A DNA stretch of 64,000 nt, from the sequence record PX969468.1. One strand, given 5' to 3'. Positions 561-45,978 of the stretch are shown one piece after another. The position numbers and the translations under genes are program-made. Position 1 is the stretch's first letter. The number at the start of each line of letters is the position of its first letter. Below the pieces are notes generated by a model. The model was not told the origin of the DNA, searched no databases, and saw only the letters and a list, made by a program, of their open reading frames with translations. This DNA is from a phage.

Positions 561-1748
561 CTCTTCAGGTCTGTGTGGGAAAAGCCAACCCCTCCGGCGG
601 CTGGGAGGGGGTCAATTAAAAAATTTACGTGGTGTATGAAGCGCTCTTCAGGTAAGGCATGTATTATGGGATGAAACCCTCTTCAGGCAATGATATTTGT
701 AGGTGTGATATTTGCTGGAGAGCCAGATATGACGGGACTCCCGGCGGGGCAGGGGTAGTACAGACAGGGAAAATATGGGGATGTAGTTGGGTGAATTGAT
801 CAGGCAGGTAGAGTATGGAATATGTTACAAGTATGTTAAATATGGAGGGTGAATATCTGCAGGATTTGTGTGTAAAATCAAAGACTTAAGTAGTGTTGTG
901 GTATTTTCTATAAATAATTCAAGTTTAATAGGTAATATTTGTCTCTATCCACTTTGTGTGGTAAACAAATTCAAATGAGGTTGGTTTACAAGTGTATACA
1001 TAATATACAAATTAAAGATACAAGAAACCCCCCTCCCCCTTCGGCTACCATTCACCTTTTCCTCTGACTGGTACTTAAACACTTATTCAGACTCTTCAGG
1101 TTATCACCCATATACCATATGGCAGTGACTGGTGTCCTCCGGCCCCTCTTTCGTCACCCGTCCGCTTCGCCATGCTAATGCCATAGCCAAATGTTCGGTT
1201 GTTCACCCTGTTCACTCAGGTGTATCTCCATACCCCTTCAAACCGAAGAGAACAGAAAACCCGAATTACTCGGTAAAAGAAAAGAGAAGAACTTAATTTT
1301 ATCAGGATAGGCAAGAATGTCAAGGCATGACTGCTCACTAAACAAGCAAACAGTCATGTGTGGGAGGTAAGTGATTGTGGTGGTGGGAAATTTAGTTGAA
1401 AGATGGGTTATAGGTGCTTCCAGCACTTTAGCCGGGCAGCTAATTGTGTGTCAGTCCAGCGGTTCATCCTCTACTTCACTGAAATCAATGTTCATGGTCT
1501 CTTCCCAACCATCGATCTCAGCACAAGAGTGGAGTTATTTAGGGTTTACTCCCAAAGCCTCAGCAACAGAGTCTATATTTAACACCTCTGGCAGGTATGA
1601 TTCATCGAATTCAAGGTAAATCAGGCCACGAGTGTTGTCAGCTCCACCAAATATTTCTATCTTCATGAAATCTCCTCTGGAAATGAGAGTGTGAACAGGG
1701 TTTTATACGTTCCAATGCACTGGAATTATACACGTTTGCCTCTTCAGG
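561..1748 (+). repeat. Five same-orientation copies of the 9-mer CTCTTCAGG (561-569, 644-652, 679-687, 1092-1100, 1740-1748) in an ORF-poor region
   Basis: Read directly from the sequence. About 0.2 copies per strand would be expected by chance in 64 kb. Region 1-1240 has no convincing ORF with an RBS. Confidence 0.5.
1535..1666 (-). CDS. hypothetical small protein (43 aa)
   Basis: ATG preceded by AGGAGA at 4 nt spacing. Below the ORF-track size cutoff. MKIEIFGGADNTRGLIYLEF... Confidence 0.35.
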   Translation of the reverse strand: MKIEIFGGADNTRGLIYLEFDESYLPEVLNIDSVAEALGVNPK

Positions 1749-1787
1749 CCATGCTTTAGCATGAGGAATCTGTGTGGGCTCGGTGCT

Positions 1788-2201
1788 TCATAGTCTACCG
1801 CCCCTAAACTCTTCGTGCTCAGGCATAATAGAGAACCAGATATCTACGATGTCCTCCCACGTCAGGTCATCAGCCTCAGGATCTACCTGGAGCGAAGATG
1901 AAGAGTCATCAGAATCGAAGTTTTCCTCTTTCACTGGCTCAGCCAATGGACATATGGTCACTCCTTCAAATGTCTCTTCAGATACATGTGTGTTGATCAT
2001 GTTCCACCCGTGAGTATTCCGGCAACAGCCGCTATGGACGTAATGATCATCAGGATCACCACTAAAACTTCGGACAGTGTTTTCATTGTGTATTCCATAT
2101 TCTCCAAATGATGTGTGGATATTATCACCGGAGCGGCAATGTGTCAACAGAAACGCCGCGAGGGTTTGGTTAAAATCCGAGCGTATGGTGATTTGGGTCA
2201 A
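1788..2201 (-). CDS. hypothetical acidic protein; start uncertain
   Basis: Track ORF with acidic C-terminus. An alternative 33-aa hydrophobic ORF (1997..2098) overlaps it in another frame. Confidence 0.3.
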   Translation of the reverse strand: MTQITIRSDFNQTLAAFLLTHCRSGDNIHTSFGEYGIHNENTVRSFSGDPDDHYVHSGCCRNTHGWNMINTHVSEETFEGVTICPLAEPVKEENFDSDDSSSSLQVDPEADDLTWEDIVDIWFSIMPEHEEFRGGRL

Positions 2202-2359
2202 AACGGACGTGCGTTCTCGCTACGCTCGAAAAGAGAGTTGTTTGTAGGAAGCTCTTAAACGCTCTGTAATGAGATTATCTGTCCAAGGTATGCAATCGTG
2301 CACCAGATAAAGAAAAGGACGCCACAGAGCGTCCTAGGTGTCTTAAATTTGATATTTTG

Positions 2360-2659
2360 CTATACCCATGATGGCTTATCAAGGTTGGAGTAGCTGAAAG
2401 GTGTCAAAAGGTGACTGTCAAAATCTCTCAAACTATCCAGATCTTTTTCCTCGTCCTGACACCATCTGTGCCTGCATTTATTGTTGTAGTGCATAGAATG
2501 CATGGCGTTCTGCAACTTAACAGGCACAAGCGATTCAGGAGTAGATAGTATTGTTGGGTATGCCAGAACCACTTCAAACAGTGGAAACACATCGAAACTA
2601 AAATCTACCTCTGCAGAGGTTGATGGCATGTAGGAGTATTTAGCCGCCTTTGTAGACAT
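2360..2659 (-). CDS. hypothetical protein
   Basis: Track ORF; start moved to the ATG preceded by GAGGTGG. Confidence 0.5.
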   Translation of the reverse strand: MSTKAAKYSYMPSTSAEVDFSFDVFPLFEVVLAYPTILSTPESLVPVKLQNAMHSMHYNNKCRHRWCQDEEKDLDSLRDFDSHLLTPFSYSNLDKPSWV

Positions 2660-2667
2660 AATCCACC

Positions 2668-3000
2668 TCACACAGGTTTGATAATACCTTCACCGAATAA
2701 CTCTTCGTATCTAATCTTATCCGGATCCCACTCCTGGATAATTTCGAAGATAATATCCAACCCTGGGATAATCACTTCTCCGGTATCAAGCTTAGCAAGA
2801 ACAAAACCGGAAGGTTGAATGGTTTCCCAGTTACGGCGATCAGAATAAAATACTTCGAAAATATCACCAACCTCAATCCGTTTCTGTTGCTCAAGATGCT
2901 CAAGGTTCTCTTTCATACGGATGCAGCGGATTTTTCGTGCAGGCCATAGACCACCTGCATCACGTTCATTCAATTCTTTTACAGTGATCCGTATACCCAT
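2668..3000 (-). CDS. hypothetical protein
   Basis: Track ORF in the co-oriented minus-strand gene array. Confidence 0.5.
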   Translation of the reverse strand: MGIRITVKELNERDAGGLWPARKIRCIRMKENLEHLEQQKRIEVGDIFEVFYSDRRNWETIQPSGFVLAKLDTGEVIIPGLDIIFEIIQEWDPDKIRYEELFGEGIIKPV

Positions 3001-3027
3001 CTCAAATCTCCTTCATAGATAGTAAAA

Positions 3028-3047
3028 AGAGGGGCCCAAGCCCCTCT
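3028..3047 (-). terminator. rho-independent terminator-like hairpin (AGAGGGGC-CCAA-GCCCCTCT)
   Basis: Perfect 8-bp GC-rich stem with 4-nt loop, followed on the minus strand by a T-rich run, just downstream of CDS 3056..3361. Confidence 0.6.
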
Positions 3048-3055
3048 CTTTGTCA

Positions 3056-3361
3056 TTATTCTACAGAGCGTTTGAACAGAATGTCTGCCTCGGACATGTG
3101 CTCAACCTCTTCTTCGATTTTAGCTCGACGTTTTTCAGCCTCATAGCGAATATCGAACTCGGTAGCCACCAGAGATTTGATGAATTTAGGAGAATACAGG
3201 TGATCCTGCTTCTCAACGAGAATGATATCCTTAATGGCATCTTTCAGATCTTTAATCTGAAGTTGGAGTTCCACCAGTTCTTCGATTGTCTTGCGAAGGC
3301 GATCACGCTCTGCAGTGTCAGAAGGAAGGGAGGTGAACAGTTCAACTTTAGATTTAGCCAT
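3056..3361 (-). CDS. hypothetical coiled-coil protein
   Basis: Track ORF; charged heptad-like sequence. Confidence 0.5.
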   Translation of the reverse strand: MAKSKVELFTSLPSDTAERDRLRKTIEELVELQLQIKDLKDAIKDIILVEKQDHLYSPKFIKSLVATEFDIRYEAEKRRAKIEEEVEHMSEADILFKRSVE

Positions 3362-3389
3362 AGTAAGAGTCTCCTTATGTTGTTTTAAA

Positions 3390-3641
3390 TTAACGTTCTA
3401 CAAAAATACCGTTCAGCTCAATAACCAGGAATTTCTGGTCTTCACTATCGTCTCGTGCCAGCACCTCACAGACGTATCGGTCATCTCCATCATCATCGCA
3501 GTCAAATACAAGACTGAGGACTTTATCATGATAAACCTTCGCCACTACCGCCTCGTAAGTATTGCCGATTGTGAATCCAAGATAATCTCCAATGCATTTG
3601 ACAACAACATGATCGCCAGCATTCAAGTCAATCTTCGTCAT
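3390..3641 (-). CDS. hypothetical protein
   Basis: Track ORF; start moved to the internal ATG (MTKIDLN...) preceded by AAGGAG. Confidence 0.5.
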   Translation of the reverse strand: MTKIDLNAGDHVVVKCIGDYLGFTIGNTYEAVVAKVYHDKVLSLVFDCDDDGDDRYVCEVLARDDSEDQKFLVIELNGIFVER

Positions 3642-3796
3642 TACTGCGCTCCTTGGGTAATAATACTGTATGTAAAACTTTAACCAGAGATGTGAATAAC
3701 GCCCCAAAACACACTGATAGCGCTAAAACAGACAAGGCCATCATTAAAGCTTCAGTAAAATCAGTCATTCCTCACCTCTTGTTAGTCACTATACTA

Positions 3797-4060
3797 TCAT
3801 TTATCCTCGCCGTCAAGAACTTTTTTAAATCTTTCAGGTATGTCACCCGTTCTTAGATAGTTCATGACCTCACAAGGTTCCCACTTGAATTTCTTACAGA
3901 GCAGGGCGGCTGAGATTGTCTCATTGCGGAAAGAAAGGATATTAATATCCCACTCTGAGAACCCTAATTTCCGAAGAGTGGCTATAGAAATCCTCACAGC
4001 AACCCAGCAAGAGAGGCACGCAACAAACGCCACTGCTATAACCCACATCAGGATGTTCAT
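3797..4060 (-). CDS. hypothetical membrane protein (N-terminal TM helix)
   Basis: Track ORF; hydrophobic N-terminus; GAGGTG upstream of the ATG. Confidence 0.5.
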   Translation of the reverse strand: MNILMWVIAVAFVACLSCWVAVRISIATLRKLGFSEWDINILSFRNETISAALLCKKFKWEPCEVMNYLRTGDIPERFKKVLDGEDK

Positions 4061-4069
4061 ACAAGCACC

Positions 4070-4153
4070 TCACTGAAATACAAGACACAGTGTTAAGGTT
4101 ACTGACCAGCAAATAATTAACAGTGCCGTTGCAACCTTGGCAAGATTTATCAT
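4070..4153 (-). CDS. small hydrophobic peptide (27 aa)
   Basis: ATG overlaps the stop of the upstream gene (ATGA coupling). MINLAKVATALLIICWSVTLTLCLVFQ. Confidence 0.35.
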   Translation of the reverse strand: MINLAKVATALLIICWSVTLTLCLVFQ

Positions 4154-4437
4154 AGTGCCTCTAAGATTTCATATCCTTCGGGTCGGAATACAAGCCACTC
4201 CGTGGCTCCGTTTGGTCGATACGCTTTATACAGAACAACCTGATCTCGGCACATGCACATAGCTACATAGTTTTCATCCACACCTGCAGCCTGCATTGCA
4301 GCTTCTTCTCCGGCAACTGCTTTGCTTACAACCTCCTTGGTAGGCAGGTGTGCGATCAGCTCGTCACCATCATTAATTCCAAAATGGCTGAGCTCCCCAT
4401 TGGTATCTTTAATCTTAATCTTAACCAGATCTTTCAT
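4150..4437 (-). CDS. hypothetical protein
   Basis: Track ORF; tight coupling with neighbours. Confidence 0.5.
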   Translation of the reverse strand: MKDLVKIKIKDTNGELSHFGINDGDELIAHLPTKEVVSKAVAGEEAAMQAAGVDENYVAMCMCRDQVVLYKAYRPNGATEWLVFRPEGYEILEAL

Positions 4438-4766
4438 TAGTCTTCCTCCAGGTTCAAAGGCCCTAAGATTTCATATGCCAGATTAGAAGTTACCAGAGGG
4501 TCTTCTGCATCTTTAGTATTATACCACCCGTGAATAACCAGAGTCCCACTCTGTTTCATATCCAACTGGAACTGTTCTGCAGTTTCCTCATCCATCTCTA
4601 AGATCTCCATGAGGTATTTGATGTTAGGAAGGTATGCAGCTGTTACAGTTCCCTCCACCAAACCTTCGGGCCAACCTACATCTGGATGACAAGTAGGAAC
4701 CAGGTTGGTCAGCTTAATGGTGTACGCTTTTTCTGCACGAGCCTTCAGTAACGGGTCAATCTTCAT
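4437..4766 (-). CDS. hypothetical protein
   Basis: Track ORF; overlapping stop/start with neighbours. Confidence 0.5.
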   Translation of the reverse strand: MKIDPLLKARAEKAYTIKLTNLVPTCHPDVGWPEGLVEGTVTAAYLPNIKYLMEILEMDEETAEQFQLDMKQSGTLVIHGWYNTKDAEDPLVTSNLAYEILGPLNLEED

Positions 4767-5116
4767 TATTCGTCCTCCTCTTCGGTGCCTGCTTCCAGTA
4801 ATAAGTTAAGAATATCTTCTGCACAAGGCTCATAGAACTCTTGGCCTTCATTATCGATGATTTTGTAGTCATCTCCACGAATAATCAGAGGATCACTCTC
4901 AAAATTATCGAGGCCTTTAACAACGACAACACGATCGATTGCCATCATTGTAAGAACTTTATCGACATCTTCCTCTGCTACACCATACTGCAGCAGAATG
5001 TCTTTGGTAGGAGGAACAGCATCCACCACAACGCCGTTACCAAAACCTTCCGGAAGTTTAGCTAAAATATCTTCCGGAACCACATTCACATCAAAACCGG
5101 TAATTTCTACTTTCAT
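4766..5116 (-). CDS. hypothetical small acidic protein (paralog family A)
   Basis: Track ORF; MKVEITG... N-terminus and acidic C-terminus shared with other family members. Confidence 0.5.
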   Translation of the reverse strand: MKVEITGFDVNVVPEDILAKLPEGFGNGVVVDAVPPTKDILLQYGVAEEDVDKVLTMMAIDRVVVVKGLDNFESDPLIIRGDDYKIIDNEGQEFYEPCAEDILNLLLEAGTEEEDE

Positions 5117-5365
5117 TTACAGCACCTCTTCGTCAACTAATTCATAAAAATGACCAGGAATCATGATTGGATCGTCCTCTTCCCCAATGAAGAGAGTGCC
5201 GTCCATAATTAGCATAATCATTGTTGCCGCACCATCTTCTGCAAAACTATTTACCATTTCTCGGGTAGGAATTTGTGCTTCAATGATATCCCCGTTTTTA
5301 AATGGAAAATCGAAATCGATACCTTCTAAAGCGGCCTCATCAATATTCTTAAGTTTAATTTTCAT
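5117..5365 (-). CDS. hypothetical small acidic protein (paralog family A)
   Basis: Start moved to MKIKLKN..., preceded by AGGAGA. Confidence 0.5.
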   Translation of the reverse strand: MKIKLKNIDEAALEGIDFDFPFKNGDIIEAQIPTREMVNSFAEDGAATMIMLIMDGTLFIGEEDDPIMIPGHFYELVDEEVL

Positions 5366-5445
5366 TATTAAAATCTCCTGTTTTGTTAAGATGGATGTAT
5401 TATTGCACACAGGGTTGGCGTTGTCAATACCTGTGTGCAAGAAAA

Positions 5446-5841
5446 TCACTGAAACAATGCGGATAAATTACCTTCTGGTGGGAACTTATCTGCCAAAAAC
5501 GGTGTTAGCACAGTAGCCTTCTGAAGATCTGGGGTCCACTCGTTGTTCAGAACATCCCAGTAGTACGCAATGTTGCTGTGCGGGTGCCGCATTACGAACT
5601 TTTTCCCTTCGTAGTCATCTGAAACCTCTACAGAAGAAATAACAACAGAATCTTCAAGGGTTTCTTCATAGAAAGACCCGCCTTCAAATTTCCAACGAGA
5701 TGCAAGAGCCCCTGCCTTGAACGCTGCAGATAACGGACTGTCGGCAAGAACATACATTTCTTGCACTCTGTCGCTGCGATCTTTGCTTCTTACGTTGTAC
5801 ACAGTATCTGAGCTATACTCAACACGGTATAGGCTTACCAT
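5446..5841 (-). CDS. hypothetical protein (paralog family B)
   Basis: Shares the C-terminal motif FV..HP.S....YW.....WTP with CDS 7652..8050. Confidence 0.5.
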   Translation of the reverse strand: MVSLYRVEYSSDTVYNVRSKDRSDRVQEMYVLADSPLSAAFKAGALASRWKFEGGSFYEETLEDSVVISSVEVSDDYEGKKFVMRHPHSNIAYYWDVLNNEWTPDLQKATVLTPFLADKFPPEGNLSALFQ

Positions 5842-6200
5842 TACCGCACCTCCTCAATAACTTCCACATCTGAACCCACCACAAATGCAAAAGGACAGGT
5901 TTCATGAAAGACATCCGGATCGCCGCCAAGCTTGCTAACAATTTCTCCACCACTAATAAACACAAGCTCACCGATATTCATCAGATTGCTGAAATAGTAT
6001 CCATAATGATTAAAGAATGCAGCCGGGTCAGGTAAACTAGTAGCCTCAAGTTCTACATCGTTTGAGATTACTTTCCTATCATAACCTCTCGCCTTCTGAG
6101 ATGCAAGATCTGCAGAATCTTCAGGCGACCGGAGATGCACAGGAATTGTTTCACCAATAAATCGTACTTTCATATTCTCACCCAACAACCATAGCTTCAA
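5841..6200 (-). CDS. hypothetical protein (paralog family A-like, ends ...DVEVIEEVR)
   Basis: Track ORF; C-terminus resembles 8052..8306 and 8296..8523. Confidence 0.45.
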   Translation of the reverse strand: MKLWLLGENMKVRFIGETIPVHLRSPEDSADLASQKARGYDRKVISNDVELEATSLPDPAAFFNHYGYYFSNLMNIGELVFISGGEIVSKLGGDPDVFHETCPFAFVVGSDVEVIEEVR

Positions 6201-6441
6201 AAGGAGTCATGAACGAATAAACGGCATCATCATCTGCTTCAGGGAATGCTCCCAAAGACTTCATGTCTGAGCCCTTGACAAATACAAGGTTTTGATCAAA
6301 AGCTTCTTGGGGATCAATCCGATACATATCTCGTAGAATATCGCTTACCTCCTCATCAAGAGGTGAGTATGCTGTGCACGTTTTTCCGATCAAGCTTTGA
6401 GAATCAGGGTATCCACCTGAAGTTTTAAAATAAACAATCAT
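6178..6441 (-). CDS. hypothetical protein
   Basis: Track ORF; GAGGTGAT upstream of the ATG. Confidence 0.45.
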   Translation of the reverse strand: MIVYFKTSGGYPDSQSLIGKTCTAYSPLDEEVSDILRDMYRIDPQEAFDQNLVFVKGSDMKSLGAFPEADDDAVYSFMTPFEAMVVG

Positions 6442-6536
6442 ATAGTATCACCTCTGGCAAGAGATGGGGATTCCTTTCCCACAAATAATTACAAACTTTT
6501 CTTTTTATTGAGAGAAGTATGCTAATCCAAGCAGGA

Positions 6537-6806
6537 TTACTCTTCTACAATCTCATACACATCAGGAGTTACAATCAACTCTTCTCCGTTACCCGGTGCA
6601 ACAAACACCACCAAGCCTTCAGGTGTGTGCTTTTTAGCCATCTCGATAACATCTTCTCGCAGGGCTGGCTCCATCAGATCAAAGCCTTCACCCAAGGCAT
6701 CACGAACTACTTTCATGTAGTCCACTGGTTGTGCTTCAACGATCATGCCTTCAACCAGTCCACAGTTTTTGTCTGCCAGCTCAGTTTTGAATAATTTAAT
6801 TTTCAT
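6537..6806 (-). CDS. hypothetical small acidic protein (paralog family A)
   Basis: MKIKLFKTE... start and ...YEIVEE end. Confidence 0.5.
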   Translation of the reverse strand: MKIKLFKTELADKNCGLVEGMIVEAQPVDYMKVVRDALGEGFDLMEPALREDVIEMAKKHTPEGLVVFVAPGNGEELIVTPDVYEIVEE

Positions 6807-6832
6807 TTAGAGGTCTCCTCAATTATTTGATA

Positions 6833-6934
6833 TTAATAGCCGTAACCTAACATATTAACTACAACTGCGATTGCAAACATAATTTCAAAGCATGCAATCT
6901 CTACATTTGGGACTAATTTCTTAATCACTCCCAT
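6833..6934 (-). CDS. small hydrophobic peptide (33 aa)
   Basis: ATG preceded by GAGGTG at 6 nt, immediately downstream of the HPF-like gene. MGVIKKLVPNVEIACFEIMFAIAVVVNMLGYGY. Confidence 0.4.
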   Translation of the reverse strand: MGVIKKLVPNVEIACFEIMFAIAVVVNMLGYGY

Positions 6935-6943
6935 TATAGCACC

Positions 6944-7261
6944 TCATTCTCCAAAGTCAATCTTTACTTTGCCTTTCCCCTTACCTTTCTTTCCACCGCA
7001 CTTAGCCAGCTGACGTGCTGCAACATCTACCATACGGTCAGTTGCCTCGTAAGCGTCACTGCCTTTAGCTTTGGCAATAACTTCTTTTCCGGAAGTGTCA
7101 AAAATGAACGCCATGACTTCCTGGTGATCATTTTCAACTTTTACACTTACACGTGCATGATTTACAGAAGGATGTAGACGCTCCAGTTTTGACATTTTGT
7201 GGGAAATGAAAGACACCATGCCTTCAGTGATTTCTACGTTGCCAGTGATTTCAATCTGCAT
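6944..7261 (-). CDS. ribosome hibernation promoting factor / RaiA (YfiA) family protein
   Basis: 105 aa; MQIEITGNVEITEGMVSFISHKMSKLERL... and ...DAYEATDRMVDVAARQLAK align by eye with E. coli RaiA/HPF; Lys/Gly-rich tail. Confidence 0.65.
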   Translation of the reverse strand: MQIEITGNVEITEGMVSFISHKMSKLERLHPSVNHARVSVKVENDHQEVMAFIFDTSGKEVIAKAKGSDAYEATDRMVDVAARQLAKCGGKKGKGKGKVKIDFGE

Positions 7262-7343
7262 AACGTGCTCCTTTTAAAGAAGAGGGAACCAAACCCTCTT
7301 TGAAAATAATGATACTAAAGATCAAGTGTTGTGTCAACAGTTT

Positions 7344-7634
7344 TTACAGCTTGTCGTCGATAGTTTTTAAAATATCTACTGCAAGATCTGCCATTTTACG
7401 AACATACTCTGCAAACTCAACAGGATCCTTGATCAATGAGTTCACAGGGTCATACCCTAAAGCGTTTAAAATGGCTACAGCATCCACGACCTTCTCATCA
7501 TTTGCGAAGATCTCACCGTCAAACTTGTAGGTCCATTTTGAGTCAATCTTGGCATGGCAGGATTGGTCCATGCTTATTACACCATCTTTTTTAAACGATT
7601 CGGTGTTATCAGTGTCTAAAACTAAATCCATCAT
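7344..7634 (-). CDS. hypothetical protein
   Basis: Track ORF. Confidence 0.5.
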   Translation of the reverse strand: MMDLVLDTDNTESFKKDGVISMDQSCHAKIDSKWTYKFDGEIFANDEKVVDAVAILNALGYDPVNSLIKDPVEFAEYVRKMADLAVDILKTIDDKL

Positions 7635-7651
7635 GTAAGTACCCCACTATT

Positions 7652-8050
7652 TCAGCTTATCTTTTCTTCAACAACCCCATAGCTTGGGGCAGAGTCAAGA
7701 GCTTTCTGGTTTAAAAGTGGTGTAGCAGAATCTGCAAACGGTGTCCAGGTTTTTGTTCTGGCATTCCAGTAATGCTTCACTCTAGAATCAGGATGCACTA
7801 TAACAAAAACTTTTTCACTTGTCAACACATTAATTTCTTCCACACCCTTGCTGATAATTTCTCCGTCATAGCCACCAGTCTGGTATCCTTCGTACCAGGT
7901 TCTTGCATAGGCATAGCCAGCCTGCCAGCATGCAGCCTCCTCCGAGGTGGAGACTACGTAAAAGTCTTTCTCAAATTCCGGAATACGCCCCTGCTTTACG
8001 CTCCAAGCTCCGCGAATTTTCATTGTTACTTTGAAAAGCTTGTTCTTCAT
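7652..8050 (-). CDS. hypothetical protein (paralog family B)
   Basis: Paralog of 5446..5841 (HPDSRVKHYWNARTKTWTP). Confidence 0.5.
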   Translation of the reverse strand: MKNKLFKVTMKIRGAWSVKQGRIPEFEKDFYVVSTSEEAACWQAGYAYARTWYEGYQTGGYDGEIISKGVEEINVLTSEKVFVIVHPDSRVKHYWNARTKTWTPFADSATPLLNQKALDSAPSYGVVEEKIS

Positions 8051-8051
8051 A

Positions 8052-8306
8052 CTACCGCTCTACAATCTCTACATCTGTTCCTACACCGAAGGCATAGTAA
8101 TGTTCTTCCCCAAAGTAATACTTGGGGACACCCGCTTTGATCAGATCTAACCCGCGAATAAATACCACACAGTGTGATACAGTGGAATGCTTCTGACGCA
8201 CAGGATCGTTGTCAGGCAACCATTCGAAGTATACCGCAGGTACAACCTTCCCTTTAAGAAAGGATTGCCCCAAGTAGACGTTAGAATCAAGAATTTTAAC
8301 CTTCAT
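8052..8306 (-). CDS. hypothetical small protein (paralog family A)
   Basis: MKVKILDS...GLDLIKAG...GTDVEIVER. Confidence 0.5.
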   Translation of the reverse strand: MKVKILDSNVYLGQSFLKGKVVPAVYFEWLPDNDPVRQKHSTVSHCVVFIRGLDLIKAGVPKYYFGEEHYYAFGVGTDVEIVER

Positions 8307-8523
8307 GATCGTCCTCCACTATCTCTACATCCTCACCTAGGGCAAAGTTGTAGGCCCACTGGCTGTCAAAGCAGTCCTGAGATGCTCCAGCGGCAATAAG
8401 ATCTGCACCCTTTATTTTTAAAAGGTCAGGATAATCTTCGTTAGGGACAGCGGTAAACACTTTACCCACTAAAGGCTCCTGACCAATATAGAAGCTTGAA
8501 TCTAAAACTTTAACTTTCATCAA
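8296..8523 (-). CDS. hypothetical small protein (paralog family A)
   Basis: MMKVKVLDS...GADLIAAG...GEDVEIVEDD; tandem duplicate of 8052..8306. Confidence 0.5.
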   Translation of the reverse strand: MMKVKVLDSSFYIGQEPLVGKVFTAVPNEDYPDLLKIKGADLIAAGASQDCFDSQWAYNFALGEDVEIVEDDHEG

Positions 8524-8804
8524 CGGTCTCCCTCAGGTGGTTGGGGGACGTAAACACTGTTACGAATCTCATCAGCGGTGTAGTAGCAGGTTTTTCCAGC
8601 CCTGTCCCTAGCAGCAATATATTCAGCTATACCTACAAGCGCCATGGCTTTGGTAGCATATCTCCCTAATTCATCTGCTCCCCAGTAGAATTTAGACCAA
8701 TATGGGATAAGTCCAAACAAATATACCTTTTGTCTCACTTCCCAATAGGTCTCTTTACTACACACCTTGAACTCCACATCTGTATCGCAAATCTTTTTCA
8801 TCAC
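8520..8804 (-). CDS. hypothetical protein
   Basis: Track ORF trimmed to the internal ATG (MKKICDTD...) that overlaps the upstream stop as ATGA. Confidence 0.45.
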   Translation of the reverse strand: MMKKICDTDVEFKVCSKETYWEVRQKVYLFGLIPYWSKFYWGADELGRYATKAMALVGIAEYIAARDRAGKTCYYTADEIRNSVYVPQPPEGDR

Positions 8805-9097
8805 TGCCCCTCTTCTGTGGTTGGATTGGTAGTAAGATATTGTGCATTGGCCGGAGGTACACCAGACATCTTCCACACAATCATACATTTATACCCAGGA
8901 ATTCTCCTAAAAGATGCTCCTGAGGTATCCGTGCAGGAATATTTCCGTTTACCGAACCCGTTCTCAAGCATGATCCAGTATCCCGTGTCTTTATCACCTG
9001 GAATTGGTAATCCCTCATCGTCCACCCACTGAATGGACCACGGCACGATGGCTACAGCTTTATATTTAAACTTTTTAAACCACTCAAAAAGTTTCAT
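8801..9097 (-). CDS. hypothetical protein
   Basis: Track ORF. Confidence 0.45.
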   Translation of the reverse strand: MKLFEWFKKFKYKAVAIVPWSIQWVDDEGLPIPGDKDTGYWIMLENGFGKRKYSCTDTSGASFRRIPGYKCMIVWKMSGVPPANAQYLTTNPTTEEGQ

Positions 9098-9100
9098 AAT

Positions 9101-9190
9101 TCAGCCTCGCATAGACATAATCACTATAAACAGGCAAACAATGAATCCGAATGCCACGCCACCCATAAACGTTAATATTGATGCAATCAT
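9101..9190 (-). CDS. small hydrophobic peptide (29 aa)
   Basis: MIASILTFMGGVAFGFIVCLFIVIMSMRG; only a weak RBS. Confidence 0.3.
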   Translation of the reverse strand: MIASILTFMGGVAFGFIVCLFIVIMSMRG

Positions 9191-9192
9191 AG

Positions 9193-9378
9193 TCAATCAG
9201 TCTCGCTTGGCAACTCTTCCACCTTAACATGCCGAAAAGTGTTACCGTAATGGTTGATCCATGACATCAGCTCACTTTCTTGCTCTTCCTCTGGAATGAA
9301 CTCTCGAATACTGACAAGTTTTAAGAAAACCCAATCACAATCTGCACCCATTCTACCAGACAGACAATAGTGCTTCAT
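9193..9378 (-). CDS. hypothetical protein
   Basis: Track ORF. Confidence 0.4.
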   Translation of the reverse strand: MKHYCLSGRMGADCDWVFLKLVSIREFIPEEEQESELMSWINHYGNTFRHVKVEELPSETD

Positions 9379-9397
9379 AAAAACCCTCCATCCTGGT

Positions 9398-9598
9398 TTA
9401 GAATACTGCCTCTTTTAATGATCCAAGGAGCAGCAGGTGTGAAATCTGATCCACATTCATGGTAGATTCAATCTCCTCTCCTTTGAAAGGTTCTCGGCAA
9501 AACAGTACTACATTCGGGTTTTCGCTACGCACTATATAATACAGATCGTTCAAATAATTCTCATAGTAGGTATTAAATTTAAGAATTTTGTCACTCAT
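9398..9598 (-). CDS. hypothetical protein
   Basis: Track ORF. Confidence 0.45.
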   Translation of the reverse strand: MSDKILKFNTYYENYLNDLYYIVRSENPNVVLFCREPFKGEEIESTMNVDQISHLLLLGSLKEAVF

Positions 9599-9882
9599 TT
9601 TCTACTCCTCTTCTTAGATTTTTGGGGAGAAACGCTTTCTGCAATACGAGACAAACGTTCTTCTGAAGCCTTGCCTATTCCAGGTTTTTTGAGTGGATTA
9701 TCTTTATGACCACAATCCAATTGGATATCGGATACCTCTCCAACCTTGTAAGTCAATTCTAGCAAAAGGTTGTCGTCCTTGTCAAATGTTTTTACGATAA
9801 ATTTTTTATCGTCCTCCTGAACCTCATATCGGGTACCTGCAGTATACAGCATGGTGCCATCAGTATAGGATATCCAGATCAT
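9595..9882 (-). CDS. hypothetical protein (basic C-terminus)
   Basis: Track ORF; overlapping stop/start. Confidence 0.45.
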   Translation of the reverse strand: MIWISYTDGTMLYTAGTRYEVQEDDKKFIVKTFDKDDNLLLELTYKVGEVSDIQLDCGHKDNPLKKPGIGKASEERLSRIAESVSPQKSKKRSRK

Positions 9883-10226
9883 TGAGCCTCCTTCTGCTGC
9901 AACAGCATTAACTCTTTGTTAGAGATCTTTACTGCTGTTTTTATTGTTCCATCTTCACGGAACCACGACCAGAACTCTACAGTGTCACCACTATCAAGCA
10001 AAGCATGCCCATGGTAAAAATCCTTGTCCTTAGACAGTTTCTCATCTATATCTGCATCAACACATTCGTGATCCATAGCATTTTGCCTGAATGCATCGGT
10101 TATGCCAATGCATGCCTTGCTCTCAAGACTGGTATATCCGATATCTTTTAATTCAGTTTCCCAAGTCCAGTATCCTACAAAAGCTACAACAGCTGCCCAC
10201 ATTAATACCGACTTAATCTTTGGCAT
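9879..10226 (-). CDS. hypothetical membrane-anchored protein
   Basis: N-terminal TM helix (VLMWAAVVAFVGYWTW). Confidence 0.45.
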   Translation of the reverse strand: MPKIKSVLMWAAVVAFVGYWTWETELKDIGYTSLESKACIGITDAFRQNAMDHECVDADIDEKLSKDKDFYHGHALLDSGDTVEFWSWFREDGTIKTAVKISNKELMLLQQKEAQ

Positions 10227-10286
10227 TCTCTCTACCTCTTTCTTAGTTTATTTAATCATGGCACATCCTTTGTGCCTTGTTGCACA

Positions 10287-10748
10287 CTACTTGAACAACA
10301 GTTCAAGATAGTGCAAAATTAACAGAAGTTGAATTACGCCTAGCACAACGGCGAGTATGTTAATCTTAGAATCAAAAAACTTCTTAACTTTTACCCTAAA
10401 AGGCTCTTTAATGTCCTTTACGATCCTATTTATAGATGATTTCATATCCCTGATTACCATCCTAAACATTAGAGACGGATCCTCCTTCTCTGTAACAGAA
10501 TCGAAAACATACTCTCTTCGGTCATAAGGCCCTCCAGATCTGCGTATTAACCTCTCCACAGAGACCTCGTACGACACACCTGTAACGTAATCATCTATGA
10601 CAAGTAGTGACGGGTCTTTATCATCCAAGGGTATCAAAGTTATCTTTCCAGATTTTGTTAAAATTTCTCCTTTTTCAAGCAAGGTGTACCAATGCTCTCT
10701 ACCAAGGTTGTTGAGGCACGTTTTTACATATTTAACAAACATCGTCAC
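10287..10748 (-). CDS. hypothetical protein with C-terminal TM helix
   Basis: Track ORF; hydrophobic C-terminus (ILAVVLGVIQLLLILHYL). Confidence 0.45.
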   Translation of the reverse strand: MTMFVKYVKTCLNNLGREHWYTLLEKGEILTKSGKITLIPLDDKDPSLLVIDDYVTGVSYEVSVERLIRRSGGPYDRREYVFDSVTEKEDPSLMFRMVIRDMKSSINRIVKDIKEPFRVKVKKFFDSKINILAVVLGVIQLLLILHYLELLFK

Positions 10749-10948
10749 CCCTCATCACACGTCTGATATAACCATTCTATGAAATCTTGATACCACTCTC
10801 CCTCTGAGCGCTCCGTAGGCCAATAATCTTCCCCCTCTCTTGCATTAAAATCTGAGTATTCGACTTTCCACTCCTTTACCAGCTCGTGGAGAAGGTTTTC
10901 AGCCTGTTCTAAGGATTTATTTTTTGTCATTACTGTCCCCTTTTTCAA
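10745..10948 (-). CDS. hypothetical protein
   Basis: Track ORF; start could be the internal MTKNK. Confidence 0.4.
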   Translation of the reverse strand: MKKGTVMTKNKSLEQAENLLHELVKEWKVEYSDFNAREGEDYWPTERSEGEWYQDFIEWLYQTCDEG

Positions 10949-11036
10949 GATAATTATACATTAGTGCCGCACCACCCAAAATGGCTACCAGCAGTAATAC
11001 TCCGGAGAGCATTTCAATAAACATGGCTTGAAACAT
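10917..11036 (-). CDS. small hydrophobic peptide (39 aa)
   Basis: ATG preceded by GAGGGG at 8 nt. MFQAMFIEMLSGVLLLVAILGGAALMYNYLEKGDSNDKK. Confidence 0.4.
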   Translation of the reverse strand: MFQAMFIEMLSGVLLLVAILGGAALMYNYLEKGDSNDKK

Positions 11037-11150
11037 TAGAAGGTCCCCTCTAATTTCACGCACCATTTTAAATACACACTCTTTTCCCATGAAGATACTG
11101 AACTAAGGTCTGTATAGAATGCAATCTCCCTAAGAACAGTATAAACAGTT

Positions 11151-11387
11151 TCAGTCACTGTTACCATTCTTATCTGCCTCCTTCATTTTTCTGACGGTTT
11201 TACAGTGATCTACCAAGCACATAACAACAATGAAGAGAACGACAGGCCAAAAAGGTGCGGCAGTGATTATAGTTATAAAGTCGTCAAACTTAATTTTTCT
11301 ACAAGATATGATGCAAAGAGTTGCTAAAACAACCATTGTCAGAAAGGTCAATGCGCAATACCAAACCAACACAGTATCTATGGCCAT
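11151..11387 (-). CDS. small membrane protein, two TM helices, charged C-terminus (holin-like topology)
   Basis: Hydrophobicity pattern only; not adjacent to the endolysin. Confidence 0.4.
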   Translation of the reverse strand: MAIDTVLVWYCALTFLTMVVLATLCIISCRKIKFDDFITIITAAPFWPVVLFIVVMCLVDHCKTVRKMKEADKNGNSD

Positions 11388-11388
11388 A

Positions 11389-11916
11389 TTACATCTCCTG
11401 GTTCAAACTGTTAAGAAAGGATACTCTGTCTTCGCTATTTTTCTCTGTGATATACCTTCCAAACATGGAAAGAATCACATGCTTCAAGTAATCTTTTTCT
11501 GGGTCGCTTAGATGATTGCGTGGCTTTATTTCCACATCATGGTAGTCATACAATCCACAATCATGATACCCCCAGTATCGACACACCTCAATACTGATCG
11601 GGAGTTTTTTGTCACACGAAACTTTCCAACGGGTTACGTTGTTACCAGGGGATAAATCCTCGCCCACCTTCACGAATGACAAATCGTAATTCATAAACTT
11701 TTCGTACAGTTTAAGTACAAAACCCTCTACCTGTGGAGAAACACCAGCCACTAGCTGGGCGTATCTATATTTACTTTCAATAATTTTTCGGCGCTTTGCT
11801 GTAAGGTTTATTGCAGCAATTTGACTCTCTGAGTATCTCCAAGGCTTATATATAAATGCTTTCGGGTCTTTATCGCCATAAAAATCTTTCCAATCAACCA
11901 GTAGCATACCTGTCAC
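11389..11916 (-). CDS. hypothetical protein
   Basis: Track ORF. Confidence 0.5.
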   Translation of the reverse strand: MTGMLLVDWKDFYGDKDPKAFIYKPWRYSESQIAAINLTAKRRKIIESKYRYAQLVAGVSPQVEGFVLKLYEKFMNYDLSFVKVGEDLSPGNNVTRWKVSCDKKLPISIEVCRYWGYHDCGLYDYHDVEIKPRNHLSDPEKDYLKHVILSMFGRYITEKNSEDRVSFLNSLNQEM

Positions 11917-12146
11917 TCCTCCACAACTTCAAGGCCTTTGCCGCCTCGTTCTGGTAGATTACTTAAAGACAGGTAATACGTATAGTCAGGAGAGATCCTG
12001 CCAGACTCTGCACCTGCAGATAGTAAATCTTTTCCCTTAACCATGACAACATTATCGTTTGCAGATAGTCGTTTTGCTTCCACAATTTTACCAACGCAGT
12101 CAACCAAGGAAGGGTACCCTAAATCTGTAAGAAATTTAACTTTCAT
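11913..12146 (-). CDS. hypothetical small protein (paralog family A)
   Basis: MKVKFLTDL...GKDLLSAG...GLEVVEE. Confidence 0.5.
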   Translation of the reverse strand: MKVKFLTDLGYPSLVDCVGKIVEAKRLSANDNVVMVKGKDLLSAGAESGRISPDYTYYLSLSNLPERGGKGLEVVEE

Positions 12147-12185
12147 GCTACCTCCTACTTCTACCGTCCCTGGTAAGATAAATTA

Positions 12186-12584
12186 TTACTGAACAGAGCG
12201 CGGAGCTGGGAAGGATAACTCTTCTAAAGAGAAGATTTCATTCCCCACAATCCATGTTGCAGGATCATCTGGGTTGACTGGATAGATAATCATCACCTCG
12301 TCAGTGTTACATACCCGCTTTTTACCTGTGGAGTCATCAGCGACCAGCATGCGCGGTTCTTCAGAAATGCACAGGTAGCCTCCTCGGCCCACTGTTCCTT
12401 CCACAGGATCTTGTCCTTTGATCACGATGATTATCTTCTCTCCTGAGGTGATATTACCTTGCACACTCACCGTTTGACCAACTTTAGATGTGCCGAACTT
12501 GGTGGTTTCAAACATTAAATCTCGAATTACTGTTGCATAGTCTCCAGACACTTTCTTACCTTCTTTAGTGATCTCAATCTTCAT
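12186..12584 (-). CDS. hypothetical protein
   Basis: Track ORF. Confidence 0.5.
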   Translation of the reverse strand: MKIEITKEGKKVSGDYATVIRDLMFETTKFGTSKVGQTVSVQGNITSGEKIIIVIKGQDPVEGTVGRGGYLCISEEPRMLVADDSTGKKRVCNTDEVMIIYPVNPDDPATWIVGNEIFSLEELSFPAPRSVQ

Positions 12585-45166: not shown

Positions 45167-45241
45167 GCCCTGTTAGCTTAGTGGATAAAGCAGCGGCCTT
45201 CTAAGCCGTTGACACTGGTTCGAGTCCAGTACGGGGTGCCA
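45167..45241 (+). tRNA. tRNA-Arg (anticodon TCT)
   Basis: Cloverleaf folded by eye: 7-bp acceptor stem, D-arm GCTT/AAGC, anticodon loop CTTCTAA, T-arm ACTGG-TTCGAGT-CCAGT, encoded CCA. Confidence 0.75.
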
Positions 45242-45245
45242 AATT

Positions 45246-45332
45246 GGGGAGTTATCCCGTAGAGGTAGCGGTGTAGACTGTAAATCTATTGTCATTGCGA
45301 CTCGGGTGGTTCGACTCCACCACTCCCCACCA
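45246..45332 (+). tRNA. tRNA-Tyr (anticodon GTA), type II with long variable arm
   Basis: Acceptor GGGGAGT/ACTCCCC, anticodon loop CTGTAAA, T-arm GGTGG-TTCGACT-CCACC, CCA. Confidence 0.75.
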
Positions 45333-45446
45333 AATTTATATTTTTAAATGCATAAATCATACAGATAATGACATTGATATTTATCGTCGTTTATACTAGT
45401 CACTAACTGCTCGAAAATCAGTGTCATTATCAGTGTAATTTATAAA

Positions 45447-45537
45447 GGAGGGTAGGGAGCAATGGTGCTCAAGCGGTCTTGAAAACCGTCCCGTTGAGGA
45501 TGACTCGATGATGGTTCGATTCCATTACTCTCCGCCA
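45447..45537 (+). tRNA. tRNA-Ser (anticodon TGA), type II
   Basis: Acceptor GGAGGGT/ACTCTCC, anticodon loop CTTGAAA, long variable arm, T-loop TTCGATT, CCA. Confidence 0.65.
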
Positions 45538-45635
45538 CATTGTTGACCTTGTAATTAAGCGAAAGCCGGAAGCAGAACCGGATTATCAAATGTTACAGTC
45601 GTCATCGCCGACTAGCCACATGGTCAACATATTGC

Positions 45636-45734
45636 GCTAGGTAAGCCCTTTGGCAAGGGCGAGGATTTTTAATCCTGAAAATAGACGAGGTAGTCGTTGA
45701 ATACATAGGTGGTTCGATTCCATCACCTAGCACC
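45636..45734 (+). tRNA. atypical tRNA-like gene (about 99 nt; Lys TTT-like anticodon loop; about 29-nt extra region); possible pseudogene
   Basis: Perfect 7-bp acceptor (GCTAGGT/ACCTAGC), D-arm, T-arm GGTGG-TTCGATT-CCATC, anticodon loop TTTTTAA with a 4-bp stem; insertion too long for a canonical type I tRNA; no full CCA. Confidence 0.35.
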
Positions 45735-45738
45735 TTTT

Positions 45739-45814
45739 GCTGATGTAGCACAATTGGCAGTGCAATTGATTTGTAATCAATAGGTTGCAGGTTCAAGTCC
45801 TGCCATCAGCACCA
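45739..45814 (+). tRNA. tRNA-Thr (anticodon TGT)
   Basis: Acceptor GCTGATG/CATCAGC, D-arm GCAC/GTGC, anticodon stem ATTGA/TCAAT, loop TTTGTAA, T-arm GCAGG-TTCAAGT-CCTGC, CCA. Confidence 0.8.
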
Positions 45815-45815
45815 T

Positions 45816-45890
45816 GGCCCTGTAGCTGGAAGGTTCAAGCAAGCGACTCATAATCGCCAGACGGTGGTTCAATTCCACCCAGGGCCACCA
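45816..45890 (+). tRNA. tRNA-Met or Ile2 (anticodon CAT)
   Basis: Acceptor GGCCCTG/CAGGGCC, anticodon loop CTCATAA, T-arm GGTGG-TTCAATT-CCACC, CCA; G1-C72 argues against initiator. Confidence 0.7.
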
Positions 45891-45901
45891 AATAATAAAT
45901 A

Positions 45902-45978
45902 CTCCGCGTAGCTCAGCTTGGTAGAGCGCCTGATTTGGGATCAGGAGGTCGAGTGTTCGAATCACTCCGTGGAGACCA
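45902..45978 (+). tRNA. tRNA-Pro (anticodon TGG)
   Basis: C1-G72 acceptor, D-arm GCTCAGCTTGGTAGAGC, anticodon stem CCTGA/TCAGG, loop TTTGGGA, T-arm GAGTG-TTCGAAT-CACTC, CCA. Confidence 0.8.

Follow-up and report, generated by a model that had tools for sequence, protein, structure and literature searches.

Conserved micro-open reading frames, probably genes for single-helix membrane peptides, in the minus-strand gene array of a Vequintavirus genome

The window analyzed here is a stretch of 64,000 nucleotides from the phage sequence record PX969468.1, and it belongs to an rV5-like Escherichia coli myovirus of the genus Vequintavirus. Its minus strand carries six micro-open reading frames (micro-ORFs), here named A to F, each encoding a very short hydrophobic peptide. 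Comparison of related genomes showed that their frames, lengths and hydrophobic character are, as far as the patterns of nucleotide substitution tell, under purifying selection across the genus, and in the case of C likewise in unrelated temperate phages. The five ORFs of the original prediction (A to E), together with a sixth one of the same type that was absent from its list (F), are probably genuine small accessory genes of 27-46 amino acids (aa), each coding for essentially one transmembrane (TM) helix. It is very likely that C, D, E and F give rise to real, translated and membrane-inserted peptides, and for A and B this is likely, with less assurance. The six micro-ORFs are:

1997..2098, minus strand: micro-ORF E, 33 aa from ATG-2098 (MEYTMKTLSEVLVVILMIITSIAAVAGILTGGT) or 29 aa from ATG-2086 (MKTLSEVLVVILMIITSIAAVAGILTGGT)
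3628..3768, minus strand: micro-ORF F, 46 aa, single TM-like segment
4070..4153, minus strand: micro-ORF A, 84 nt, 27 aa (MINLAKVATALLIICWSVTLTLCLVFQ), single TM-like segment
6833..6934, minus strand: micro-ORF B, 33 aa (MGVIKKLVPNVEIACFEIMFAIAVVVNMLGYGY), single TM-like segment
9101..9190, minus strand: micro-ORF C, 29 aa (MIASILTFMGGVAFGFIVCLFIVIMSMRG), single TM-like segment with a GxxxG motif
10917..11036, minus strand: micro-ORF D, 39 aa (MFQAMFIEMLSGVLLLVAILGGAALMYNYLEKGDSNDKK), one TM segment and a polar tail (YNYLEKGDSNDKK)

The five ORFs first listed were found at the predicted coordinates, all on the minus strand and 27-39 aa in length, and each of them is indeed little more than a single hydrophobic stretch, with a score of 2.15-2.95 in the best 19-residue Kyte-Doolittle window (the customary threshold for a TM segment is approximately 1.6). 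All six have fewer than 50 aa, one spanning hydrophobic segment and no other domain, as is characteristic of small single-pass membrane proteins, and for B, D and F the rV5 orthologs were assigned one transmembrane domain (TMD) by both TMHMM and Phobius (PMC3606486 Table S3). Most of the ORFs were also thought to have a Shine-Dalgarno (SD) sequence or ATGA coupling. This holds for A, B, D and the stop codon of E, but C has no good SD, and the GGAGA of E is too near ATG-2098.

In a megablast search with positions 1500-12500 of the window, 123 phage records matched at 80-99% identity, all of them Vequintavirus, and the nearest were ECML-10 (97%) and JES2013 (96.5%). According to GC skew and the ORF map, the region is part of a single long minus-strand gene array from approximately 1.7 to 41 kb, a stretch described in rV5 as "88 mainly small ORFs" (PMC3606486). 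The array is tightly packed, with gaps usually below 30 nt between genes, and the micro-ORFs occupy otherwise empty gaps flanked by genes of the same strand, where there is no other predicted content. Mononucleotide shuffling of these gaps gave an ORF of at least 25 aa with a hydropathy of at least 2.0 in 0.09% of the cases for A, 0.29% for B, 0.89% for C, 0.15% for D and 0.03% for E.

A lack of conservation of the reading frames in homologous regions was named in the original prediction as part of what would refute it, and the frames are kept across the related genomes. Alignments were made for each ORF with 18 related GenBank phage loci and two IMG/VR loci; the most divergent comparison genome, L004, is a single contig and was the sole reference for deep conservation. 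D is intact in 20 out of 20 genomes, one of which (Aya) has an in-frame insertion of 3 nt, and 20 of its 27 variable sites are at the third codon position (3/4/20 by position, P = 2e-5). The ratio of nonsynonymous to synonymous differences per site (pN/pS) of D is 0.07 in frame vs. 2-3 in the two other forward frames, and 0.09 against L004. In the other forward frames of C, D and E taken together, pN/pS ranges from 0.6 to 2.9 or there are no synonymous differences, and the flanking genes have ratios of 0.03-0.36 against L004. D is preceded by GAGGGG 8 nt upstream, its start overlaps the preceding 43-aa ORF (11036..11167) in the sequence TAATG, and the beginning of the next gene shares 14 nt with the end of D. 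Start from the alternative ATG-11024 would give 35 aa and some records have a 57-aa extension, but 39 aa was judged the best reading. D corresponds in position to rV5 ORF131 (gp126), annotated as 'membrane protein, 1 TMD' (PMC3606486 Table S3), and matches the profile of PHROG 15251 over its full length (E = 1.4e-30, residues 1-39 of a 39-position profile). An exhaustive phmmer search of 1.84 billion representatives revealed only one other cluster, a 40-aa protein on short contigs with 59% identity, which keeps the pattern IEMLSG...ILGGA...LEK. D is located two genes downstream of a 78-aa protein with two TMDs, encoded at 11151..11387, and near two more proteins with one TMD.

A total of 91 Vequintavirus records contain C. 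Of the 20 loci examined, 6 lack it cleanly, and it is intact in every genome carrying it, with a pN/pS of 0.31 within the genus. The upstream stop codon is 2 nt before the ATG of C, and the stop codon of C is 3 nt before the next ATG; in place of a good SD there is GAGA approximately 12 nt upstream in the window, and GAGG in most relatives. A direct repeat borders the ORF:

9196..9206, minus strand: direct repeat, 5' copy (GCGAGACTGAT), at the end of the upstream gene 9193..9378
9099..9110, minus strand: direct repeat, 3' copy (GCGAGGCTGAAT), which takes in the final codons of C, its stop and the SD of gene 8801..9097

The C module is a 96-nt insert between these two approximately 11-nt copies of GCGAG(A/G)CTGA, which coincide with the SD-stop junction. 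Genomes without C have a single copy of the repeat (GCGAGGCTGAATTATG), and their flanking genes are joined directly by an ATGA overlap. The repeat suggests that the module may be gained and lost by microhomology at intercistronic junctions.

Homologs of C were also identified in 10 out of 5,426 complete E. coli genomes, where approximately 100 nt match and nothing around them does. These copies belong to prophages, with the lysis cassette on one side and the terminase genes on the other, and have CGAGGCTGATTATG as a border at either end of the module. Eight IMG/VR viral contigs of 21-54 kb carry homologs as well. The copy in L026, one of the temperate E. coli phages or prophages, differs from that of the window at 3 of 90 bases, and others are 78% identical with solely conservative hydrophobic replacements. 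In the comparison with prophage L022 the synonymous divergence (pS) is 0.52 and the nonsynonymous divergence (pN) 0.137, a ratio of 0.26, and the differences are distributed 7/2/11 over the codon positions. These matches show that C has been transferred horizontally as a unit, and this movement is the strongest single argument that so small an ORF is a gene. Two degenerate-pattern scans of the GTDB species-representative genomes gave no match to C, which therefore seems rare outside E. coli prophages and Vequintavirus, and A, B, D, E and F, joined into one DNA query, had no match in the 5,426 E. coli genomes. The label 'DUF1043' on a metagenomic homolog of C was judged to be a compositional match of the TM helix and not a relationship.

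F is intact in 21 out of 21 genomes with a pN/pS of 0.28, and 0.25 against L004. It is rV5 ORF156 (gp151), again a 'membrane protein, 1 TMD' (PMC3606486 Table S3), and belongs to PHROG 16755.

E is intact in 18 out of 21 genomes, including a diverged positional ortholog in L004. Its variable sites are distributed 6/5/15 over the codon positions (15 of 26 at position 3), and pN/pS is 0.22, or 0.38 against L004. The GGAGA sequence is just 2 nt before ATG-2098, codons 2-4 are variable while M5-K6-T7 are conserved, and in the match to PHROG 34195 (E = 4.6e-21) residues 5-33 correspond to profile positions 1-29 of 29; for these three reasons the 29-aa start at ATG-2086 is the likelier one. The stop of E and the start codon of gene 1788..2000, which comes next, overlap in the sequence ATGA. 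In rV5, an over-extended 101-aa ORF162 in another frame is annotated across E instead, spanning also the block 2138..2230 described below; this frame contains stops in some relatives and has a pN/pS of 0.62, vs. 0.22 in the frame of E.

The region upstream of E has features of its own:

2119..2147, minus strand: sigma-70-like site TTGACA-17-TAATAT, TG-extended, just upstream of E (a consensus match only)
2316..2335: terminator-like hairpin, upstream of the promoter-like site 2147..2119

Since the terminator-like hairpin and then the sigma-70-like site precede E, a transcription unit may have this ORF as its first cistron. The -35 element of the site is at the end of an ultra-conserved block of approximately 93 nt (2138..2230), which is approximately 100% identical in 19 closer Vequintavirus genomes and 90-97% identical in L004, vs. 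47-60% in the flanks. The block holds the inverted repeat CGAGCGTA/TACGCTCG; it has no credible match in Rfam, and its predicted fold is unremarkable (z = -1.1).

The start of A overlaps the stop of the upstream gene 4150..4437 as ATGA, with GAGG 4 nt upstream, and its stop is located inside the SD (TGAGGTG) of the downstream gene 3797..4060. The product of this gene, which is coupled to A, is an 87-aa membrane protein with an N-terminal TM segment. The length of 27 codons is kept in 20 out of 20 genomes. The positional ortholog in L004 (MMNMSKVVTAALVITIISTVLLCVFGH), with a GTG start overlapping the upstream stop, differs from A at 40 of the 78 internal bases (51%; 15/8/18 by codon position, the second position being the least changed) and keeps a hydropathy of 2.7. 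When the same amount of change was simulated under neutrality, A remained open and TM-like in 0.9% of the trials (P = 0.009).

The annotation status of the ORFs is less uniform than originally stated, as the description 'unannotated and missed by gene callers' is true of A only, B, C, D and E being annotated in related genomes. The interior of A matches 118 phage records. Sixty of these were sampled at even intervals of the ranking; 48 of them carry annotation, in no case over A. A has no PHROG match, and none of its 10 sequence variants is present in a collection of approximately 15 billion proteins. A is the only new gene among the five, being annotated nowhere in the sampled records. The minimum gene length of Prodigal is 90 nt, and the 84 nt of A fall below it, which would explain why A was never called.

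The remaining ORFs have annotated counterparts. The rV5 proteins gp126, gp140 and gp151 are direct orthologs of D, B and F, with the same length and array position and near-identical sequence (Kropinski et al. 2013, Virol J 10:76, Table S3); the copies in the window differ from them by 0-3 residues, and D starts with ATG here and with GTG in rV5. CarlMeissner, a BASEL phage, has annotated CDS for both C and E (bas48_0161 and bas48_0137), as does MiataMamis (the pair CDS0044/CDS0068), and E is annotated in JES2013 (ORF152) and Murica as well. C is identical in sequence to bas48_0161 and an exact member of a 29-aa cluster with E. coli EQT27264 (at least 90% identity). The orthologs of C and E in the BASEL phage, MiataMamis and JES2013 are called only 'hypothetical protein', and most other records omit them. 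The PHROGs of B, D, E and F (15151, 15251, 34195, and 16755) have no function attached. B and D occur, in addition, on hundreds of metagenomic contigs.

Several observations weigh against taking all six ORFs for genes of membrane peptides. No ribosome profiling, infected-cell proteomics or transcriptome was found in the literature for any Vequintavirus, and neither Pfam nor PHROGs gave a function for the peptides or their neighbors, homology, domains and context all being empty in this respect. Hydrophobic ORFs arise easily in T-rich sequence, and in a crude six-frame census, comprising 741 ORFs of 20-59 aa of which approximately 2% are TM-like, TM-like micro-ORFs were only approximately 3.6-fold enriched in coding-strand gaps (7/100) as compared to elsewhere (13/641; P = 0.011). 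All the credible ones from this census are within 2-11.4 kb. The selection signal of A is weak, with variable sites distributed 6/5/9 over the codon positions and a within-genus pN/pS of 0.36, in weak contrast to 0.40 and 0.78 in the alternative frames. The conservation of the start and stop codons of A and C is partly forced by the overlap with the stop codon and SD of their neighbors. In B, pN/pS is 0.4-0.5 and the variable sites are distributed 7/3/5. The ratio is uninformative here because the synonymous sites of B hardly vary: in three comparisons its pS is 0.17, 0.10, and 0.03, vs. 0.55, 0.30, and 0.32 in the two flanking genes, so that these sites are 3-10 times more conserved in B (binomial P = 8e-4, 0.03, and 5e-4). 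The frozen stretch is 6833..6905, the 3' two-thirds of the ORF. As the synonymous sites are frozen, a constraint beyond the peptide acts on the last approximately 75 nt, and part of the conservation of B concerns the nucleotides and not the peptide. Among the aligned genomes, almost no sequence variation is seen in B or in the block 2138..2230.

The strongest competing explanation concerns mainly B; in this view a nucleotide-level element (a promoter, 5' leader, RNA structure or protein-binding site) is what is conserved and the open frame is a by-product. Candidates for such a constraint are an internal inverted repeat, an RNA structure, the predicted fold of B being somewhat stronger than that of shuffled sequences (z = -2.3), or the following site:

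6933..6960, minus strand: sigma-70-like site TTGACT-16-TATAAT, TG-extended, with the -10 element overlapping the start codon of B (a near-consensus match only; most relatives have TACAAT instead of TATAAT)

No Rfam family matches B, however, and the ORF has an SD at ideal spacing (AGGTG, 6 nt upstream) that is kept in 21 out of 21 genomes, in all of which the frame is also intact; where codons 2-4 and 10 differ, the replacements are conservative. B is rV5 ORF145 (gp140), in the same position directly downstream of the ribosome hibernation factor (HPF/RaiA) homolog 6944..7261, and two TM predictors called it a protein with one TMD (PMC3606486 Table S3). It also matches the profile of PHROG 15151 in full (E = 3.4e-25, residues 1-33 of a 33-position profile). 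The element may, moreover, be embedded in B and is then compatible with a real gene, and for D, E and C, which have ordinary synonymous divergence, the explanation is not applicable. As an account replacing that of peptide genes, it is unlikely. The HPF/RaiA homolog itself was found by tblastn in the phage collection only in Vequintavirus, save for one Salmonella HPF at 40% identity; used as a query for distant phages, it retrieved relatives at the genus level (>90% identity) and one bacterial HPF, and two loci in IMG/VR.

Another explanation, which concerns mainly A, C and E, is that translation through the gap is what matters, for coupling or mRNA protection, the peptide being incidental. 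Indeed, at least one end of each of these three ORFs is a junction where stop and start codons overlap or adjoin, no good SD precedes C, and A evolves fast, its amino acid identity to the L004 ortholog being 48% vs. 76-86% in its neighbors. Genomes without C nevertheless join the flanking genes by the ATGA overlap and need no relay, and D and B have their own strong SD sequences. Nor does such a function give any reason for hydrophobicity, yet A stays TM-like after a change of 51% of its bases, and C stays hydrophobic, with a pN/pS of 0.26, in a different genomic context. We consider this explanation improbable.

It has also to be asked whether the peptides could be related to lysis or act as toxins, as holin or antiholin partners or as membrane poisons resembling type I toxins. 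The toxins of the Hok, Ibs and TisB type are similar to the micro-ORF peptides in size and hydrophobicity. In general, type I toxins (Hok, Ldr, Ibs, TisB, and ShoB) are likewise hydrophobic single-helix peptides of 18-50 aa, but they are encoded by free-standing loci with an antisense RNA antitoxin, whereas the micro-ORFs form part of operons, with translational coupling to their neighbors. The Rfam searches revealed neither an antisense antitoxin nor any other family in the region: at the gathering threshold there were only tRNAs in the whole window, and with the limit relaxed to E <= 1 there was nothing credible around micro-ORF E. As to lysis, the 78-aa protein with two TMDs, encoded two genes upstream of D, is called a 'putative holin' in rV5 (PMC3606486), and the prophage homologs of C come just after a holin-lysozyme-Rz cassette, from which they are separated by a 180-aa gene, an arrangement that is only suggestive of holin or antiholin function. 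The 'holin' label, however, is a guess from the TMD count alone, and the lysin gp89 is not adjacent to the ortholog of D but approximately 22 kb away from ORF131 on the rV5 map. Toxin-like or lysis-related peptides are on the whole a very improbable reading, and a role in lysis as such is equally doubtful.

That the ORFs are functionless chance products of T-rich spacers is barely credible: short ORFs are plentiful in the six frames and the hydrophobicity of intergenic small ORFs (smORFs) follows partly from AT-richness (PMC11188072), but the shuffle probabilities per gap are 0.0003-0.009, the frames are retained genus-wide with third-position-biased variation, the indel in D is in frame, C moved as a unit, the gaps hold no other predicted content in an otherwise packed array, and the frameshifts and stops expected at a neutral rate are not seen in relatives for A, B and D.

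The favored reading of the micro-ORFs remains that of non-enzymatic accessory inner-membrane peptides which would act through a single helix. B and D would be translated from the polycistronic mRNA by means of their own SD, and A, C and E by stop/start coupling with the neighboring cistrons. The peptides would then be inserted into the inner membrane, like the host peptide YohP, where the helix may pack against host or phage membrane proteins or perturb the membrane, in either case without catalysis. Three observations fit such action: small-xxx-small motifs of the GxxxG/AxxxG type are found in C, D and E, A is coupled to the 87-aa membrane protein, and D is located amid membrane-protein genes. 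That the helix modulates a specific membrane protein by helix-helix contact, instead of perturbing the membrane generically, is a real but tentative possibility. The roles are thought to be accessory, of the host-takeover, exclusion or anti-defense type, since C is missing from approximately a quarter of the genomes and E is disrupted in a few. The idea of 'membrane-targeted effectors', put forward in the original prediction, is plausible as a hypothesis.

Among known systems, Imm and Sp of T4, SieA of P22 and gp15 of HK97 are phage-encoded proteins of the inner membrane that lack enzymatic domains and target membrane functions of the host. These exclusion and takeover proteins provide the favored functional analogy (for SieA, see PMC10883804), but they are larger (approximately 80-160 aa or more), often multi-pass, and have no homology to the micro-ORFs. 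Lipoprotein exclusion proteins similar to Llp and Cor were considered as well and dismissed, as inspection of the sequences revealed no Cys in the lipobox context [LVI][ASTVI][GAS]C. YohP of E. coli (27 aa) is inserted by the signal recognition particle (SRP) and depolarizes the membrane (PMC7549839; bioRxiv 10.1101/2025.05.06.652344). The likeness is one of size and single-helix architecture alone, but YohP demonstrates that insertion of so short a peptide, and action on the membrane, can occur. The sequences are not similar, and YohP is host-encoded and stress-induced, while the phage ORFs are members of operons and their insertion is predicted. With the catalogs of phage small genes and of Enterobacteriaceae smORFs (PMC11188072) the micro-ORFs share a class, that of conserved genes below 50 codons, often hydrophobic or TM-like, often missed by callers and found by comparative signatures.

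For the most part these results do not change what is known, since small single-helix membrane proteins are recognized and abundant in phage accessory regions, and four of the five ORFs are already in GenBank. Fremin et al. reportedly predicted families of small genes in phage genomes in 2022 (Cell Rep). As A is missing from every sampled annotation and from the collection of 15 billion proteins, the coverage of such short genes is likely to be incomplete. The more interesting leads are the C module, the arrays in prophages described below, the frozen synonymous sites of B and the conserved block upstream of E. C provides a clean natural case of a gene module of approximately 100 nt, common to a virulent phage and temperate prophages and bounded by microhomology, and its natural presence/absence variants ease functional testing. 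Should one of the peptides target a specific host membrane protein, it might, speculatively, serve as a compact tool or lead.

In the prophages, the homolog of C heads a row of 7-9 adjoining micro-ORFs, each of 20-36 aa; this back-to-back array is located after the lysis cassette and ahead of the small terminase gene. Such arrays were delineated in three E. coli temperate phages or prophages:

L026, 5902-6623: prophage array
L023, 5956-6601: prophage array
L021, 6006-6724: prophage array

In each of the array peptides, one hydrophobic helix comes after a short polar head, often of the form M-[DN]-x-[YI]-[DE]. For 20 orthologous pairs of array micro-ORFs taken together, pN/pS is 0.37 in frame vs. 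1.02 and 0.89 in the other frames, and the differences are distributed 66/58/121 over the codon positions. PGAP annotates none of the array micro-ORFs, and in L021 an overlapping 64-aa 'hypothetical protein' is given instead. These tandem micro TM genes may merit a study of their own. A far-reaching reading of them is that micro TM genes are exchangeable cassettes, for which conserved SD-stop-start junctions (CGAGGCTGA-TT-ATG) would provide recombination microhomology, and that the temperate arrays of 7-9 paralogs would be diversifying membrane micro-effectors, for instance in exclusion or counter-defense. This is a long shot; if it is true, genes of single-helix peptides pass between temperate and virulent coliphages and are invisible to standard pipelines.

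A few further observations concern the window and its relatives. The 18 records named 'Campylobacter phage' (MG0656xx) are 92-93% identical to this E. coli Vequintavirus across 11 kb, and those inspected individually are marked UNVERIFIED and give C. jejuni as the host; either the naming or the host assignment looks doubtful. The Rfam search placed six tRNA genes in a cluster at 45167..45975 on the plus strand of the window. Finally, L004 has at 6731..6850 an extra TM-like micro-ORF of 39 aa (MLDLAYFLTVIGTPFVAAYGVWVVMERNTLKDFLVKKGL), while the equivalent gap of the window (6442..6536, 95 nt) is empty; this peptide is found in the protein collection on contigs of up to 138 kb.

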